Assembly (NCBI RefSeq): GCF_963921235.1
Contig: NC_086108.1
Coordinates: 58,406,001 to 58,470,000, forward strand
DNA from: Mobula hypostoma
Lineage: Eukaryota
Direction: 5' to 3'
Length of the DNA: 64,000 nt
Within the stretch, counting starts at the first letter, position 1, and each line of letters starts with the position of its first letter. Both the position numbers and the translations under genes were made by a program. Shown here one piece after another: positions 2,930 through 61,319 of this stretch. Under the pieces are notes generated by a model. That model ran no database searches. It had not been told where the DNA came from and saw only the letters and a program-made list of their open reading frames with translations.

Positions 2930-4570
2930 TAAATGTCTTTGATGATTCATTGCCCAATGAACTTAGTGCCTTTTATGCACACTTTGAAAAGGAAAATATA
3001 CTACAACTATGCGAATCACTGAAGCACCTGGCAACCTTGTGATAAGAGTCTCTGAGGCATCATTTAAGAGGGTGAACTGTTGCAAGACATCAGGCCCCAA
3101 GGGTGCACCTGGCAGGACGGCTGGAATGTTCAAGGACATCTTCAGTCACTCACTGCTGCAGTCAGAGGTTCTCAGCTGCTTCAAAAGGGCATTAATCATA
3201 CTGGTACCCAAGAACAGCAGAGAGAGCTGCCTCAACGACGATTGTCCAGTAGCATTCACATCTACTTTGAGGGGTTGGTTATGGCCAGCATTAATTCCTG
3301 CCTGAGCAAAGACCTGAACCCTCTGCACCTTGCCTACCCTAACACCAGGTCTAAAGTGGATGCAATCTCACAGGCTCTCCATTTGGCCTTGGACCACCTG
3401 GACAATAAGAATAACCACATCAGGCTGCTGTTTAATAATTACAGCTCAGCACTAATTAACAAACTTCAAAACCTGTGCCTCCATACCCAGAACTGGATCC
3501 TTAACTTCCTCATCAGGAGATTGATCAGTGCGGATCGGAAATAACAAGTCCTCCTTGCTCATCATCAACAGGTGCAACTCAAGGGTGCATCCTTAGCCCA
3601 CTGCTCTTCTCTGTACACTCATGACTGTGTGGCTGAGCACAGCTCAAACTGCACCTATAAATTCACCAATGACATCAGTGTTGTGACAGAATTGGTGACG
3701 AGGCATACAGAAATGAGATAATTTGATTGGGAGAGTGCTGTCACAACAACAACCTTGCACTCAATGTCAATAAGACTAAGGAATTGATTGTGGACTTCAG
3801 GAAGGGGAAGTATAGAGAACATACATTAGTCCTCATTGAAGGGTCAGCAGTGTAAGGGGTGAGCTGCTTCAAGTTCCTGGGTGCCAACATCTCAGATGAT
3901 CAATTGTGGGCCAACTATATTGACACTATTACAAAGATACACCAATAGCTATATTTCATTAGGAGTTTGAGGAGATTTGGTATGTCCCTAAAGACGCTAG
4001 CAAATTTCTACAGATGTGCTGCAGAGAGCATGGGTGCAGCACCGTTCAATATTGAGGCACCAATGCACAGGACTGGAAAAAGCTGAAAAGGGTTTCAGTC
4101 TTAGCAGTTCCATCATGGGCACTAGCCTCCCACCATCGTGGACATTTTCAAAAGTGATGCCTCAAGGTGGCAGCATCAAGGAGAAGCATCACCATCTGAG
4201 ACATGGACTCTTTTCATTGCTACCAGAGTGAAGGCACAGGAGTGTCTGAAGACACAAACTCAACAGTTTAAGAACAGGTTCTTCCCTCCTGCTCAACACA
4301 CAGAAAATGCTGGAGGAATTCAGCAGGCCAGACAGCATCTATGGAAAAAAGTACAGTAGATGTTTCAGGCTGAATCCCTTCGGCAGGACTCTTCCCTTCT
4401 CCTACTTGATTTCTGAAGGGTCCATGAACACTGTTTCACTATTTTGCTCTTATTTCATACTCTATTTTTATATATTTTGTTGTAATTTATAGAAATTTGC
4501 ATATTGCACAGTACTGCTACTGCAAAACAAGTCTCACAACAAATCTAATAATAAACCCGATTCTGATTAT
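2930..4570 (+). mobile_element. Rex1/Babar-type LINE, 5'-truncated and decayed
   Basis: AYPNTRSKVDAISQALHLALDHLDNKNNHIRLLF motif, KTKELIVDFRK-type motif and AATAAACCCGATTCTGATT tail. Confidence 0.8.
4294..4389 (-). mobile_element. Single-arm Penelope pLTR-derived short element with degenerate hammerhead
   Basis: Minus strand GTCCTGCCGAAGGGATTCAGCCTGAAACATCTACT...TGTGTGTTG; flanked by tcttccctcctgct (4280-4293) and tcttcccttctcct (4390-4403), a 14-bp TSD with 2 mismatches. Confidence 0.7.
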
Positions 4571-5625: not shown

Positions 5626-6497
5626 TAGTTAGAATAAATGTTGTTTTATTTTATGTCGTCTTATGTTCAACGCTTTTACAAGAGGGAGGAAGCAGGCCAG
5701 TCAAAAGGTTCTGGGGCTCCTTGAATGATCCGACTTTACACAAATTCTCCCATACATTTTACAAGCAACAAATAGCAAAAGTACATGAGGTGGTACAATG
5801 TGGGTTTACTATAGAAAATGGACATTTCTGAATTACGGAAGTCAGCTTACAGACATTTTTCAGGAACACAACCTTTATAGTCCAAATAAGGGCAGCTTTA
5901 TTAATACACATTTTCACAAACAAGCTTCTCTTCAAAGACACTCTAAACAATCTACATTTGCTGGAATATATACTGATATTTAAATTACGTAGCTCACAAA
6001 AATACCCAAGCTATCAATTTACGAATTGCTGACCTAAAAATTTAGTTTTAACCAGATTTTTCTATTTAACAACACCTGATCTCAATTAAGATTGTCACAA
6101 TTCGGATCTTAAGGTTACAAATTTTTAGAGTCTGAAGAATTTTTCCTTGTTCTACTTTTGCTACAATAAGAAATTTGAAAAAAAACATAACAGATGGTGA
6201 CACATTCAATCATTCTGTTCAAAAATTCCCTCCTAGTGTGTCATTAAATAATGTTTTGAATGACGTATTTGACCTTGTTAATACTTCACCAACCAGTTTA
6301 CTAGTAGCCATATCTGAACAAATTTTGGGAGGGGTAGTTCAAAAAGACAACTATGAAGCAACACTGCCACACAAAATAGAGGCAGCTGCCAGACCTGCTT
6401 TTGTACCAGAGATTACACAATGCTACACAAAATACCGTGAAATGAGAAGCTTGGGGAACAACAAATATTACTCAGAAACTCGCTATCACAGCCATTT

Positions 6498-6533
6498 AGT
6501 CCTGACGAAGGGTCTCGGCCTGAAACGTCGACT
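6498..6533 (+). ncRNA. Minimal type I hammerhead ribozyme (copy 1)
   Basis: Stem I AGTC/GACT, core CTGACGA (6502-6508), stem II AGG..CCT (or GGGT..GCCT), GAAA (6522-6525), palindromic ACGT stem III and GUC cleavage triplet (6527-6529). Confidence 0.75.
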
Positions 6534-6807
6534 GCGCCTCTTCCTATAGATGCTGCCTGGCCTGCTGCGTTCACCAGCAACTTTGATGTGTGTTGCTTGA
6601 ATTTCCAGCATCTGCAGAATTCCTGTTGTTTGCGTTTAAATTCACTACTGCGAAGCCTCTTCCGGTGATGCCTACACCGAAGAAGTTTAGATCCTCTCTT
6701 CGACGGGAGTTCAGTGAAACCATCTCTCACTGCTCCCCATCTGTGATTTCTTCGGCTCTTCAACTTTTCGACCAGACTTTGACTCAAACTCGCTATCACA
6801 GCCATTT

Positions 6808-6843
6808 AGTCCTGACGAAGGGTCTCGGCCTGAAACGTCGACT
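6808..6843 (+). ncRNA. Minimal type I hammerhead ribozyme (copy 2)
   Basis: Identical to 6498-6533; predicted cleavage after 6839. Confidence 0.75.
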
Positions 6844-7074
6844 GCGCCTCTTCCTATAGATGCTGCCTGGCCTGCTGCGTTCACCAGCAACTTTGATGTG
6901 TGTTGCTTGAATTTCCAGCATCTGCAGAATTCCTGTTGTTTTAGTCAGAAACTTATTGTTTGAAATTGGCCACAAAATATCCCATCAATTATATTGTCAA
7001 GATTATCAATGCAAACATTGTGAAGGGATGTGGGGGTAGGGCAAGCTAATAAATTATTCCTTAGGCTCTTAAGG

Positions 7075-7245
7075 GTTGCAGATAGTGTAGTGGTTAATGT
7101 AACGATTTACATCGCCAGCAACTGAAAGATCGGAGTTCAATTCGCATCGCTGTAAGGAGTTAGTACATTCTCCCATGACTGCATGGATTTCCTCAGGGTA
7201 CTCCAGTTCACAACCACATTCAAGAATAAGCTGCTGGGTATGCAA
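7075..7245 (+). mobile_element. tRNA-derived SINE (V-SINE/HE1-like) fragment
   Basis: A-box-like TAGTGTAGTGG, B-box-like GGAGTTCAATTC, then a V-domain-like GTACATTCTCCCATGACTGCATGGATTTCCTCAGGGTACTCCAGTT. Confidence 0.6.
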
Positions 7246-21184: not shown

Positions 21185-22128
21185 TAGTGGATTCTGGTGA
21201 ATTATGGCATTGGTTAATCAAGATAACTGCTTATTTGGGACAACTCTTTTAAAAAAAAAATTAATTGAGAAAATAGCTGGGATTCCCTTCATTTATTTGG
21301 GACACTATGCCATTTAAATGGGGCAGGAGACTACTGCCGAACAGTTTCTAACTAGCATCAGTCACGTGCACTTGTGTGACCATTAGACACTACACCATAC
21401 TTCAAGAGAACAGTTTTTAAAATACTATCAGTTGCGTGTGTGTTCAAAAAGCACCGATTTCTGTTACTGATACTGGGTGAGAAATAAGCAGTAAGACAAT
21501 TCAGGCAACACACGTAAAAATTGCTGGTGAACACAGCAGGCGAGGCAGCATCTATAGGAAGAGGTACAGTTGACGTTTCGGACCGAGACCCTTCGTCAGG
21601 ACTAACAAAGGGTCTCGGCCCGAATTGTCGACTGTACCTCTTCCTATAGATGCTGCCTGGCCTGCTGCACTCACCAGCAATTTTTATTTGTGTTACTTGA
21701 AATTCCAGCATCTGTAGATTTCCTCGTGTTTGCGTTTTTAAAGACAATTCAGAACTGTTTTGTTCACTGTGGTTTCAAACATTCAGGTTAGAGATGTCAG
21801 AAACAGCCAGACCTGAAACTGAAACAATTTTAGTACTTCAAGTTACAAGCTATGAAGAATTTGAAGGTATTGACAATCAAAAAGAATGTAGCAGCATACA
21901 CTGAATGAATTCCTTCCTTGATAAATATTACACACTAACTCTTATAGTACAGCAGTAGTACTGGTAGTGTTGTAATTTGTTCTGCATTTCATTTAAATAC
22001 ACATTTTGTTACTCAATTTGCCTTTTTTTAAAATATACCTTTCCAGGAAACTTCAGCTAATTGGGGTAACTGCTTAATAGGGTCAAAATGTACTGGTCCG
22101 ATGTGTCCCAATTAACCAGAATCCACTG
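21185..22128. mobile_element. pogo/Tigger-like non-autonomous DNA transposon
   Basis: TA-flanked TIRs TAGTGGATTCTGGTGAATT / AATTAACCAGAATCCACTG; interrupted by 21505-21740. Confidence 0.7.
21505..21740. mobile_element. Palindromic Penelope pLTR-derived element with hammerhead motif
   Basis: Inverted ~90-100 bp arms plus pLTR tail; exact 12-bp TSD aagacaattcag (21493-21504 and 21741-21752). Minus-strand core CTGACGA at 21599-21593 and GAAA at 21579-21576. Confidence 0.85.
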
Positions 22129-42322: not shown

Positions 42323-44542
42323 AGAACATAGAGCATAGAATAGTACTGCACAGTACAGGCCCATCGGCCCACAATGTTGTGCCGAGCCTCAAACCCTGCC
42401 TCCCATATAAGCCCCCACCTTAAATTCCTCCATATACCTGTCTAGTAGTCTCTTAAACTTTGCTAGTGTATCTGCCTCCACCACTGACTCAGGCAGTGCA
42501 TTCCACGCACCACCCACTCTCTGAGTAAAAAACCTTCCTCTAATATCCCCCTTGAACTTCCCACCCCTTACCTTAAAGCCATGTCCTCTTGTATTGAGCA
42601 GTGGTGCTCTGGGGAAGAGGCGCTGGCTATCCACTCTATCTATTCCTCTTATTATCTTGTACACCTCTATCATGTCTCCTTTCATCCTCCTTCTCTCCAA
42701 AGAGTAAAGCCCTAGCTCCCTTAATCTCTAATCATAATGCATACTTTCTAAACCAGGCAGCATCCTGGTAAATCTCCTCTGTACCCTTTCCAATGCTTCC
42801 ACATACTTCCTATAGTGAGGTGACCAGAACTGGACACAGTACACCAAGTGTGCCCTAACCAGAGTTTTAGAGAGCTGCATCATTACATCGCGACTCTTAA
42901 ACTCTATCCCTCGACTTATGAAAGCTAACACCCCATAAGCTTTCTTAACTACCCTATCCACCTGTGAGGCAACTTTCAGGGATCTGTGGACATGTAACCC
43001 AGATCCCTCTGCTCCTCCACACTACCAAGTATCCTGCCATTTACTTTGTACTCTGCCTTGGAATTTGTCCTTCCAAAGTGTACCACCTCACACTTCTCCG
43101 GGTTGAACTCCATCTGCCACTTCTCAGCCCACTTCTATCAATGTCTCTCTGCAATCTTTGACAATCCTCTACACTATCTACAACACCACCAACCTTTGTG
43201 TCGTCTGCAAACTTGCCAACCCACCCTTCTACCCCTACATCCAGGTCGTTAATAAAAATCGCGAAAAGTAGAGGTCCCAGAACAGATCCTTGTGGGACAC
43301 CACTAGTCACAATCCTCCAATCTGAATGTACTCCCTCCACCACCACCCTCTGCCTTCTGCAGGCAAGCCAATTCTGAATCCACCTGGCCAAACTTCCCTG
43401 GATCCCATGCCTTCTAACTTTCTGAATAAGCCTACCATGTGGAACCTTGTCAAATGCCTTACTAAAATCCATATAGATCACATCCACTGCACTACCCTCA
43501 TCTATATGCCTGGTCACCTCCACAAAGAACTCTATCAGGCTTGTTAGACACGATCTGCCCTTCACAAAGCCATGCTGACTGTCCCTGATCAGACCATGAT
43601 TCTCTAAGTGCTCATAAATCCCATCTCTAAGAATCTTTTCCAACAGCTTTCCCACCACAGACGTAAGGCTCACTGGTCTATAATTACCCGGACTATCCCT
43701 ACTACCTTTTTTGAACAAGGGGACAACATTCGCCTCCCTCCAATCCCCCGGTACCATTCCCGTGGACAACGAGGGGACATAAAGATCCTAGCCAGAGGCT
43801 CAGCAATCTCTTCTCTCGCCTCGTGGAGCAGCCTGGGGAATATTCCATCAGGCCCCGGGGACTTACCTGTCCTAATGTATTTTAACAACTCCAACACATC
43901 CTCTCCCTTAATATCAACATGCACCAGAACATCAATCTCACTCATATTGTCCTCACCATCATCAGGTTCCCTCTCATTGGTGAATACCGAAGAGAAGTAT
44001 TCATTGAGGACCTCACTCACTTCCACAGCCTCCAGGCACATCTTCCCACCTTTATCTCTAATCGGTCCGACCCTCACTCCTGTCATCCTTTTCTTCTTCA
44101 CATAATTGAAGAATGCCTTGGGGTTTTCCTTTACCCTACTCACCAAGGCCTTCTCATGCCCCCTTCTTGCTCTTCTCAGCCCCTTCTTAAGCTCCCCTCC
44201 CTTCTTGCTTCCCTATATTCCTCAATAGTGCCATCTGATCCTTGCTTCCTAAACCTCATGTATGCTGCCTTCTTCCACCTGACTAGATTTTCCACCTCAC
44301 TTGTCAACCATGGTTCCTTCACCCTACCATTCTTTATCTTCCTCACTGGGACAAATTTATCCCTAACATCCTGCAAGAGATCTCTAAATATCGACCACAT
44401 GTCCATAGTATATTTCCCCTCAAAAACATCATCCCAATTCACACCCGCAAGTACTAGCCTTATAGCCTCATAATTTGCCTTTTCCCAATTAAAAATTTTC
44501 CTGTCCTCTCTGATTCTATCCTTTTCCATGATAATGCTAAAG
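42323..44542 (-). mobile_element. CR1 LINE (RT), nested inside a plus-strand CR1
   Basis: 242-aa RT ORF with [23 protein letters not shown] and FADDTK. Confidence 0.92.
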
Positions 44543-58810: not shown

Positions 58811-59013
58811 TCTATAGAAGTTTGTCAAAGTTTTAGATGTCATGCTGAATCGTTGCAAACTTCAAAGAAAGTCAAGGTGCTGCCATGCTTACTTCGTAAT
58901 AGCACTTACATGCTGGAGCCGGGACAGATCCTCTGAAATGATAACATAAAGGAATTTAAAGTTGCTGACCCTCTCTACCTTTGATTCCTCCAGTGAGGAC
59001 TTGCTCATGGACC

Positions 59014-59252
59014 AACACACATCAAAGTTGCTGGTGAACGCAGCAGGCCAAGCAGCATCTATAGGAAGAGGCGCAGTCGACGTTTCAGGCCGAGACCCTT
59101 CGTCAGGACCCTAGTTACGTTAGTCCTGACGAAGGGTCTCGGCCTGAAACGTCGACTGCGCCTCTTCCTATAGATGCTGCTTGGCCTGCTGCGTTCACCA
59201 GCAACTTTGATGTGTGTTGCTTGAATTTCCAGCATCTGCAGAATTCCTGTTG
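59014..59252. mobile_element. Perfect palindromic Penelope pLTR-derived element with two divergent hammerheads
   Basis: 97-bp perfect inverted arms (59013-59109 and 59123-59219) with a 13-nt spacer and pLTR tail; 14-bp TSD cttgctcatggacc (59000-59013 and 59253-59266). Confidence 0.9.
59122..59157 (+). ncRNA. Minimal hammerhead ribozyme (mirror copy on the minus strand at ~59075-59109)
   Basis: AGTC CTGACGA (59126-59132) AGGGTCTCGGCCT GAAA (59146-59149) C GTC GACT, identical to the copies at 6498 and 6808. Confidence 0.75.
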
Positions 59253-61319
59253 CTTGCTCATGGACCTCTGGTTTCCTCCTCCTGAAGTCAATAATCATCT
59301 CCTTCGTTTCCTTGGACACCACGCTGACAGATTTTCGATCTTCTTTCTATATGCTGATTCATCACCATCTTTGATTTGGGCAACAACAGCGGTGTTACCA
59401 GCAAACTTAAGTATGGCTTTGGAGCTGTGCTTAGCCTCACAGTCATAAGTATAACATGAGTAGAGCAGGGGGCTAAGCACATAGCCTTATGGTGCTTCTG
59501 TAGTGATGGTGATTGTGGAGGAGAGGCTGTTGCCAATCTGAACTGACTGGAGTCTGCAAGTGAGAAAATCAAGGATCCAGTTGCACGGGAGGTATTGAGG
59601 CTAAGAACTTGGAGTTTATTGATTAGGTTTGAGGGGATGATAGTATTGAGTGTCAAACTGTTGTCAATGAATAGTATGCTGGTGTATGTACCTTTGCTGT
59701 TCAGATGTTCCACGATTGAGTGAAGAGCTAATGAAATGGCATCTGCTGTTGAACTGTTGTTCTGATTGGCAAATTGGAGTGAATCCAAGTCACTTCTCAG
59801 GCAGGAGTAGGTAAGTTTTATCAAAGCAGATGTAAGTGCTACTGGACAATAGTCATTGAGGCAGATTACTATGTTCTACTTAGGCACCAGTATAATTGAA
59901 GCCTGCATGAAGCAAGTGGGTACCTCAGACTGCCAAAGCTAGAAATTAAAGATATCAGTGAACACTCCAGCCAACTTATAAGCACAGGTCTTTAGTACTC
60001 GACCAGAAACCCATCTGGGCTGGATGCTTACTGTGGGTTCATCATCCTGAATGGTATTCTCACGTCAGCCTCACAGGGTCTTCTGAAGCTGTGGGAGTTC
60101 ATGAAAGTGCCTCCATGTTTTGATGGTCAAAGTGAACATAAAAAGACATTGAGCTTACCTAGGAGCGAAGCCTTGTTGTCTGTCACCTGTCACTTGGTTT
60201 CACTTTGTAGGAGGTGATAGCAGTTAAGCCCTACCATAGCTGTTGGGCATCCTTCAGTGATCAAGTTTGGTCCAGAATTGCCGTTTCACACGTGAGATGA
60301 CTTTCCAGAGATTGTACTTGGACCTCTTGTATTTGACTTGGTTGCCAACCCGAATGCCACTGGTCTGGCCGTCAGCATATTGCAGATTTCATGGTTTATC
60401 CAGGGCTTCAGGTTAGGGAAGACACTGAATAATTCTGTGGGGCACACTCATCTATGACTTTCTCACTATAGAAATACTTTGTTTCCAATCCCAGTCTTTT
60501 TACTCTGTTACCAGTTTATATAGATGTTCTCGTGTCAAGGTGGCATTGCTACTCTTCACATGGTTCTAACTTTAGTCTCTGTCCACACACTGCCGTTTCA
60601 GGCAGTATCAGACCAAAAACAATTGGGTATCATTACCATAATGGACACTAGAGGTCAGTGCTGTCATTATTTTCCCTTTTCCTGATTCTACTTAGCTATT
60701 GTATGCTCCATTAAATATGTTTTTATTGTCTTTTACAACTAGGATACCTGCTTACCTTCTGCACAGTTATTGACATACTGGCAAGGTGATAAAGGTGATA
60801 GATCTTCCATGAATGAAAATTTGTTCTCACATCACTTGATGGAGATGAGATTTTTAATTATTGTGAGGTCATAAATATCAGAGTATGAAAACTGACCTGT
60901 AGGCCCACTGAGTTCGCACTAACTATCAAACACCCATTATAGTAATCTTATTCTAACCTCAATGTTATTGTCTCTGCAAGAACTAGCTTAATGACAATGC
61001 TACCTTGTTTGTGCCCAGCAGACTTCAATACAGATCAAGGTTTATCCAAAAGGACTGCTTACCACAGGAGAACAGAACATAGAAGAACTTACAGTCATAA
61101 TGGCATCAACAAACAATGATTCCTCGGGTGACATCTCCCAGATAGCCAACCTCTTCAATTATTTGACTTTATTTATGTCTTCTGCTTGTGCTTTTTGTCC
61201 TGATCATGTTAGGGAAACTGTTGGAGCCTGTGAAAGTGCAGTTCGGAATTCAATTGAATGATGTCAAGTAGTCAATCTCTGAAAAGCATTGATAAATGCT
61301 GAGTTCACCCATCTTGTAA

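Follow-up and report, generated by a model that had tools for sequence, protein, structure and literature searches.

Introduction

Canonical EN+ Penelope-like elements (PLEs) of the Neptune/Nematis type carry minimal hammerhead ribozymes in their pLTRs (accessible parts of PMC4209133 and PMC8557442), and in the accessible part of PMC8557442 this type is defined by a CX2-5CxxC linker before the endonuclease. As far as the available text of PMC4209133 goes, a G-C pair closing stem II is highly conserved in minimal hammerheads, these ribozymes cleave poorly in vitro, and the intron of the D. virilis Penelope ends at the 5' end of hammerhead helix I; circular templates for PLEs appear there, in 2014, as a proposal only. 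One of nine Xenopus minimal hammerhead dimers was cut. For the Poseidon element PAc, the available sections of PMC11167929 describe hammerhead cleavage as dispensable for insertion in vitro and report neither a circular template nor template jumping.

Penelope pLTRs are the presumed source of non-LTR retrozymes, whose birth is put down to local tandem amplification in the available part of bioRxiv 10.64898/2026.07.22.740005; the preprint also lists the retrozyme families of one cartilaginous fish, which could include units related to the one described here. Pseudogenes derived from circular RNAs come from mammalian host-gene circles in the part of PMC4897178 available to us, where it is also said that junctions of this sort can be imitated by RT acting on structured RNA with open ends. 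A literature search through titles and the starts of abstracts, with subscription journals mostly outside its range, returned no back-spliced PLE circles and no retrocopies of them. Retrozyme-like mini-elements made from PLEs are a known kind; the new aspect here is a splice-like junction.

The insertion studied here lies in a 64,000-nucleotide stretch of the Mobula hypostoma genome (further referred to as the window) and is a real, young, non-propagating mini-Penelope retrocopy. A sequence-only reading had interpreted it as a mini-retrozyme. From that interpretation the Penelope origin, the minimal dimer-type hammerhead, the join of ORF to pLTR and the mobilisation in trans stand, and the propagating family and the hammerhead-made circle find no support. 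Judging from the DNA, we see an even chance that the insert is a back-spliced 310-nt Penelope RNA circle copied about 1.5 times round by the RT of its parent.

Results

Architecture of the insertion

The insert occupies positions 6481-6940 (460 bases, 1.48 units) and consists of parent segments P296-310, P1-310 and P1-135 in this order. In this numbering P1 is window position 6496, the first base of the 310-nt unit, and negative numbers denote the parent 3' UTR just upstream. The parts of the insertion described in this section are all on the plus strand. The left TSD of 13 bp (6468..6480) pairs with the right one (6941..6953) with one mismatch, exactly as first described; in one contig of run X1 (spanning 6300-6522, depth 2.9) position 6471 is G, which would make the TSD perfect and may be an error. 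The last 5 nt of the left TSD are also identical to parent P291-295 (5' microhomology). Comparison with the parent gives a 5'-truncated part-unit, P296-310 (6481..6495); the first junction of P310 to P1 (6495..6496), blunt and with zero added bases; the complete unit P1-P310, a putative back-spliced exon (6496..6805); and a 3' part-unit, P1-135 (6806..6940). The second junction (6805..6806), identified by pattern match, is the same as the first. Thus the P310/P1 junction occurs twice inside the insert, at 6495/6496 and 6805/6806.

The two 156-bp direct repeats at spacing 310 (6476-6631 and 6786-6941) are indeed 100% identical, the first 5 nt of the left one being target DNA that is alike through microhomology. 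A 63-aa ORF (6668..6859) starts with the first 46 codons of the 1016-aa parent RT/GIY-YIG ORF and continues through the junction for 17 pLTR codons, in agreement with its earlier description as a Penelope ORF start fused to the pLTR. The spacer had been called unique; in fact it has 1823 first-look candidates genome-wide, and all 40 that were scored are 100% identical. The element was also thought to be internally deleted, which is probably wrong: nothing beyond the 5' end of a parent transcript is required to make the unit.

Since a precursor with one junction would lack P136-295, unequal crossing-over cannot have built the second junction of the window, and this argues for back-splicing. As the insert has no internal repeat (5' end P296, 3' end P135), RT must have met the junction twice, in line with the suggestion that the RNA template carried it more than once. 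The two identical junctions did not come from later DNA duplication, and a circular or repeatedly copied RNA template is therefore indicated. From the sequence, two blunt identical jumps would be possible, a covalent junction within the template being the simpler account.

The window contains further copies of the element. Two pLTR fold-back pairs are 98-99% (59013-59257) and 86-90% (21498-21737) identical to the unit, and older solo pLTR copies lie at 779-888, at 4294-4390 and near 42396. The stretch at approximately 7070-7220 we take, by eye, to resemble a decayed tRNA-derived SINE.

The parental element

A genome-wide search, as the sequence-only reading had suggested, found the full-length parent: the unit corresponds to P1-P310 of an active Penelope-like element that is young, present in many copies and equipped with an intact RT/GIY-YIG ORF of 1016 aa, and differs by one base from parents L005, L011 and L058. 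In all 18 copies fetched with 10 kb a second pLTR lies about 3513 nt downstream, and the ORF is intact in 8 of these 18. The parent thus has the partial-tandem pLTR layout with a hammerhead seen in EN+ PLEs. Pfam matched RVT_1 in the parent protein with E 5.6e-05, below its curated cut-off, and gave no GIY-YIG match; a PDB sequence search with the ORF yielded 0 matches. By pattern, the motifs DKG, YIDD, CX4CxxC and GIY-YIG are present, and the CX2-5CxxC linker ahead of the endonuclease has its motif at residue 883. By this layout the parent is an EN+ PLE, with motifs arranged as given for Neptune/Nematis elements.

The 3' ends of mini-insertions of the family form two clusters, near P100 and P136, and the window insert ends within one of them, at a presumed RT start site. 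This end and the 13-bp TSD bear out the claim of mobilisation in trans by the parent RT. The two clusters resemble the two internal RT initiation sites of PAc, an element that, in the available sections of PMC11167929, differs in belonging to another clade and in starting its ORF within the hammerhead.

The 5' ends of pLTR copies peak genome-wide at P3 (3193 matches), which is the probable transcription start, with a second start near P-2. The sequence around P3 resembles an initiator consensus. P1 is the 5' boundary in 801 matches (5 of the 30 inspected are point mutants), which rules it out as a rare start. Five parents are internally deleted (L082, L099, L102, L106 and L014), with the ORF start (P335-884) joined to 3' parts.

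A second locus with the same junction

Searched genome-wide, the P310/P1 pattern has six matches, two in the window and four at 157.8 Mb of C2 (G000). The C2 locus (L037, G000:C2:157816473-157817738) is a 4.08-unit array of the 310-nt unit with its own 13-bp TSD. Its unit differs from that of the window at four sites, fixed in every unit of the array. Parent L083, in which P310 is followed by GT, contains a C2 unit without a single difference. A diagnostic 46-mer carrying two of the four C2 alleles has 250 exact matches. The window and C2 match different parent subfamilies, and hence the junction most simply arose twice, independently; the recurrence of the same blunt junction from a second subfamily favours back-splicing.

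Both loci could instead descend from a genomic tandem array of a propagating mini-retrozyme, lost since or absent from the assembly. The presence of one junction on two contigs, each time as a multimer with its own TSD, is in keeping with this, and the assembly may be incomplete. We consider it highly improbable: the loci match different subfamilies at the four diagnostic sites, so common descent would need recombination with parent RNA, and the genome-wide pattern search, which allowed up to one mismatch, found no third copy. Relaxed patterns gave 3 and 7 extra matches, all in unrelated DNA except for the ambiguous fold-back L045 (C58), which was rejected as a third copy because 3 of its 7 matching bases belong to the inverted arm, and was left out of all counts. 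Detectable daughters of the window copy are absent genome-wide. The propagating family proposed earlier is thus reduced to one other locus with the junction, whose copy fits another parent subfamily, and the 460-base insertion is apparently an infrequent by-product and not a ribozyme element that spreads.

The number of independent junctions at C2 may be smaller than four. Site 34, the cut-site base, alternates T,C,T,C along the array, and therefore the four junctions may be two that were doubled later, which counts against back-splicing. The alternation agrees with a duplication of 620 nt, with a dimeric template or with two events of CpG decay. The C-to-U change at the cut site was also considered as an error of RT at a ligation scar, which is inseparable from CpG decay (4 TG and 5 CA among 100 element copies examined with the first CpG intact). 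The array has overlapping ends, and unequal crossing-over after insertion could have grown it. Also against back-splicing, of the 28 C2-subfamily copies that can be read 22 have no GT, so the source of C2 need not have had it.

Splice-like signals at the junction

In the parents P1 is preceded by a pyrimidine-rich UTR (80% C+T over 290 nt, three AGs) that ends in CAG, and P310 is directly followed by GT. These signals, which are predicted, not annotated, favour back-splicing. The join is blunt, without microhomology or added bases, and identical in all six copies. By a crude score the CAG before P1 ties for top among the 114 AGs of the element. P1 occupies the 5' end of hammerhead helix I, as does the D. 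virilis intron end, and in the position of the acceptor the element is like described EN+ PLEs. The differences are that the acceptor here would pair with a downstream donor inside the ORF, not with an upstream one, and that the window copy holds only P1-P310, head-to-tail.

Back-splicing would proceed as follows. In a read-through parent transcript the GT after P310 would serve as donor and the AG before P1 as acceptor of a back-splice. The resulting circle would still contain the site where RT starts (about P136), together with the ORF-start region, to which the protein probably binds. The RT would start near P136, cross the junction twice and stop at P296, and the cDNA end would join the target through the 5 nt of microhomology, with the 13-bp target duplication.

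As a donor the P310 site is weak, coming 21st among 135 GTs by a matrix of approximate human frequencies, which counts against back-splicing. Of five further donor tests one was positive: P408, listed in advance, was then found joined to P1 in insertion L134. This insertion carries A at P311 and so lacks the GT donor at P310, and the joining of a pre-listed donor to P1 in such an allele speaks for back-splicing. On the other side stand the four negative tests, the stronger donors P92, P169, P486 and P2896/P2915 not being found joined to P1 by genome pattern search, and the 3 nt of microhomology (CAG) that the P408/P1 junction also has. L134 itself (G000:C1:112.45 Mb) is a fold-back insertion with the junction in both arms; the idea that its arms represent two parent haplotypes was rejected, since their differences are not parent alleles. 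In contigs of runs guessed to be RNA, compared with the window and with a parent, the P310/P1 joint is absent among the matches listed, which for the parent are 15 of 92; this comparison covers contigs only.

Census of mini-insertions

Mini-insertions were collected with twelve gapped exact-match patterns, which cover most of P160-P510 and see only junctions near P1. After merging the apparent segmental duplicates L133 and L170, the census holds at least 60 distinct insertions. The pLTR-side breaks peak at P3 (20 of 60). Extra bases are present at 18 of the 60 junctions, some of them being alleles or further deletions, microhomology at 27, and 15 are blunt. An extra G in L110 and L119 was considered as a cap-derived base and rejected, as a parent allele has G at P292.

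To judge from such features, most minis look like template jumps of RT from the RNA 5' end. The P310/P1 junction might have arisen in the same way, by run-off at a 5' end at P1 of linear RNA and two jumps to P310, the GT and AG being coincidental. The P3 peak, extra bases and microhomology support this, as do the 18 of 58 insertions that begin within P-6..P9, the fairly common use of P1 as a 5' boundary, which also counts against back-splicing, and insertion L167, whose junction is compatible with P1 and lacks GT. A further point in favour is a two-junction array (L150, G000:C40:114.42 Mb) with the same ends (P276, P3) and six added bases at one junction only; it may be read as the footprint of repeated RT jumping on linear RNA. 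It is the only other clear array without overlapping ends, and its two junctions differ. We nevertheless regard jumping as an unlikely origin of the P310/P1 junction. It would need an identical blunt junction in two subfamilies, with zero added bases in six of six copies; in the census P310 is never paired with the commoner starts P3 or P-2; and jump-type breaks are sparse beyond P303 (1 of 57), GT/AG insertions accounting for three of the four breaks there.

The distribution of GT also speaks against jumping and favours back-splicing. Four insertions are able to start at P1, and in three of these the ORF-side break is followed by GT, as against 1 of the 56 others (Fisher's test on insertions, p = 5e-4; p = 5e-3 when the two P310 loci count as one). 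A junction is present more than once in 3 of 3 GT/AG insertions and in 10 of the remaining 57 (p = 0.008). The tests are in part post hoc, P310 having prompted the idea.

Non-splice junctions also recur and form arrays (10 of 57), which counts against back-splicing. The blunt junction P303/P3 is found at three loci (L116, L117 and L121) in slightly different alleles, L118 being one base off, and marks a small mini-family that propagates or else an RNA 3' end used by preference; junction P246/P-4 is common to two separate insertions. Nascent tandem minis with units of about 135-280 nt and 2-5 junctions (L165, L171, L123, L129, L131, L144, L147 and L136) mostly have 1-3 nt of microhomology. L165 carries five identical non-splice junctions, and long arrays were accordingly rejected as a mark of the splice class. 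Most arrays, that at C2 included, have overlapping ends, and later unequal crossing-over could account for their growth.

Hammerhead motifs

Each repeat holds a minimal type I hammerhead, at 6498..6533 and 6808..6843, with predicted cuts after 6529 and 6839. The core and the loopless ACGU palindrome are as originally recognised, stem I measures 4 bp and stem II 3 bp, and the predicted cut sites come out at the positions first given. The core boxes, a helix I of 4-5 bp, the palindromic 15.2-16.2 and the extra base before helix II characteristic of minimal type I are all present. Position 11.1 is U in 254 of 268 element copies examined, so the pair closing stem II (10.1-11.1) is G-U and not G-C. 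Rfam at gathering scores gave 0 matches within the window. For the tandem RNA, pairing probabilities of stems I/II are predicted at 0.26-0.28 in copy 1 and 0.05-0.08 in copy 2.

The hammerhead route of the sequence-only reading, if fed by forward splicing, would give a circle of identical sequence. A transcript containing two pLTRs would be spliced forward from P310 to the downstream P1, cut by the dimeric hammerhead, ligated as a 310-nt circle and copied by rolling circle. Circles of this kind are proposed for PLEs in the accessible part of PMC4209133, and in the deleted copies L099 and L106 the ORF start and the acceptor are no more than about 150 nt apart. Truncation at the cut site P35 is somewhat more frequent than at P36 (about 55 vs about 20 copies, scaled from 18/30 and 10/30 inspected), an excess that is modest and confounded, as about 5 of the 18 are fold-backs with stem I microhomology and the flank composition differs. 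Against this route, no single-junction retrocopy of a linear spliced RNA was found, both loci being multimers, and neither was forward splicing from the strongest donor. In the densest interval of the census no mini-element junction starts at P35 (0 against 21). Reciprocal stem III pairing is predicted to be near zero in the tandem RNA by a folding program that takes nested folds only. The poor cleavage of minimal hammerheads in vitro, the single active dimer from Xenopus and the dispensability of cleavage for PAc insertion weigh in the same direction. We therefore consider forward splicing with hammerhead cutting quite improbable.

The earlier proposal that the hammerhead makes the circle is not upheld either, as the junction that can be seen is at GT/AG, 34 nt upstream of where the ribozyme would cut, and in that interval of the census 0 junctions start at the cut site. 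A circle cut and religated there would be seamless and leave no trace in DNA, and may have formed all the same. Within the reading of the insert as a back-spliced circle, and with the same even chance, the hammerheads would be passengers inherited from the pLTR, which the back-splice route does not need.

Discussion

The window insertion shares with non-LTR retrozymes, as characterized in the accessible parts of PMC7229834 and bioRxiv 10.64898/2026.07.22.740005, the short tandem unit (in the range of 150-450 bp), a type I hammerhead in each unit, a long TSD and derivation from a PLE. With the structural rule of two units with complete motifs in the available part of the latter it agrees only loosely, having 1.48 units and two motifs. 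It differs from retrozymes in that its hammerhead is minimal instead of canonical, splice signals flank the junction, and there are two independently arisen loci in place of a self-propagating multi-copy family. The predicted 310-nt circle, unlike those of retrozymes, is not highly self-paired (z -1.26, with 14 of 100 shuffles equally stable; linear z -1.83). The insertion works like a retrozyme precursor and stands outside the retrozymes on propagation and fold. The likeness to circRNA-derived pseudogenes, in the part of PMC4897178 available to us, is that both are retrocopies that lack a poly(A) tail and have acceptor and donor joined in non-colinear order; here the source is instead a retroelement's own RNA with an RT start site, and the junction is crossed repeatedly.

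More generally, we tentatively suggest a mode of birth of non-LTR retrozymes to which ribozyme cutting would be unnecessary. A conserved PLE splice acceptor at the foot of the hammerhead would allow back-splicing into small circles, which RT would copy by rolling circle into arrays, and RT jumping end to end from the transcription start would add to these. Should the splice reading fail, the insertion is one of the ordinary, rare by-products that a very abundant element leaves. The GT/AG anatomy, set against the jump-type minis, makes the two routes of retrozyme birth testable, and bears on whether minimal hammerheads act in vivo. If the suggestion is true, this genome holds about 60 such births of retrozymes, readable junction by junction.
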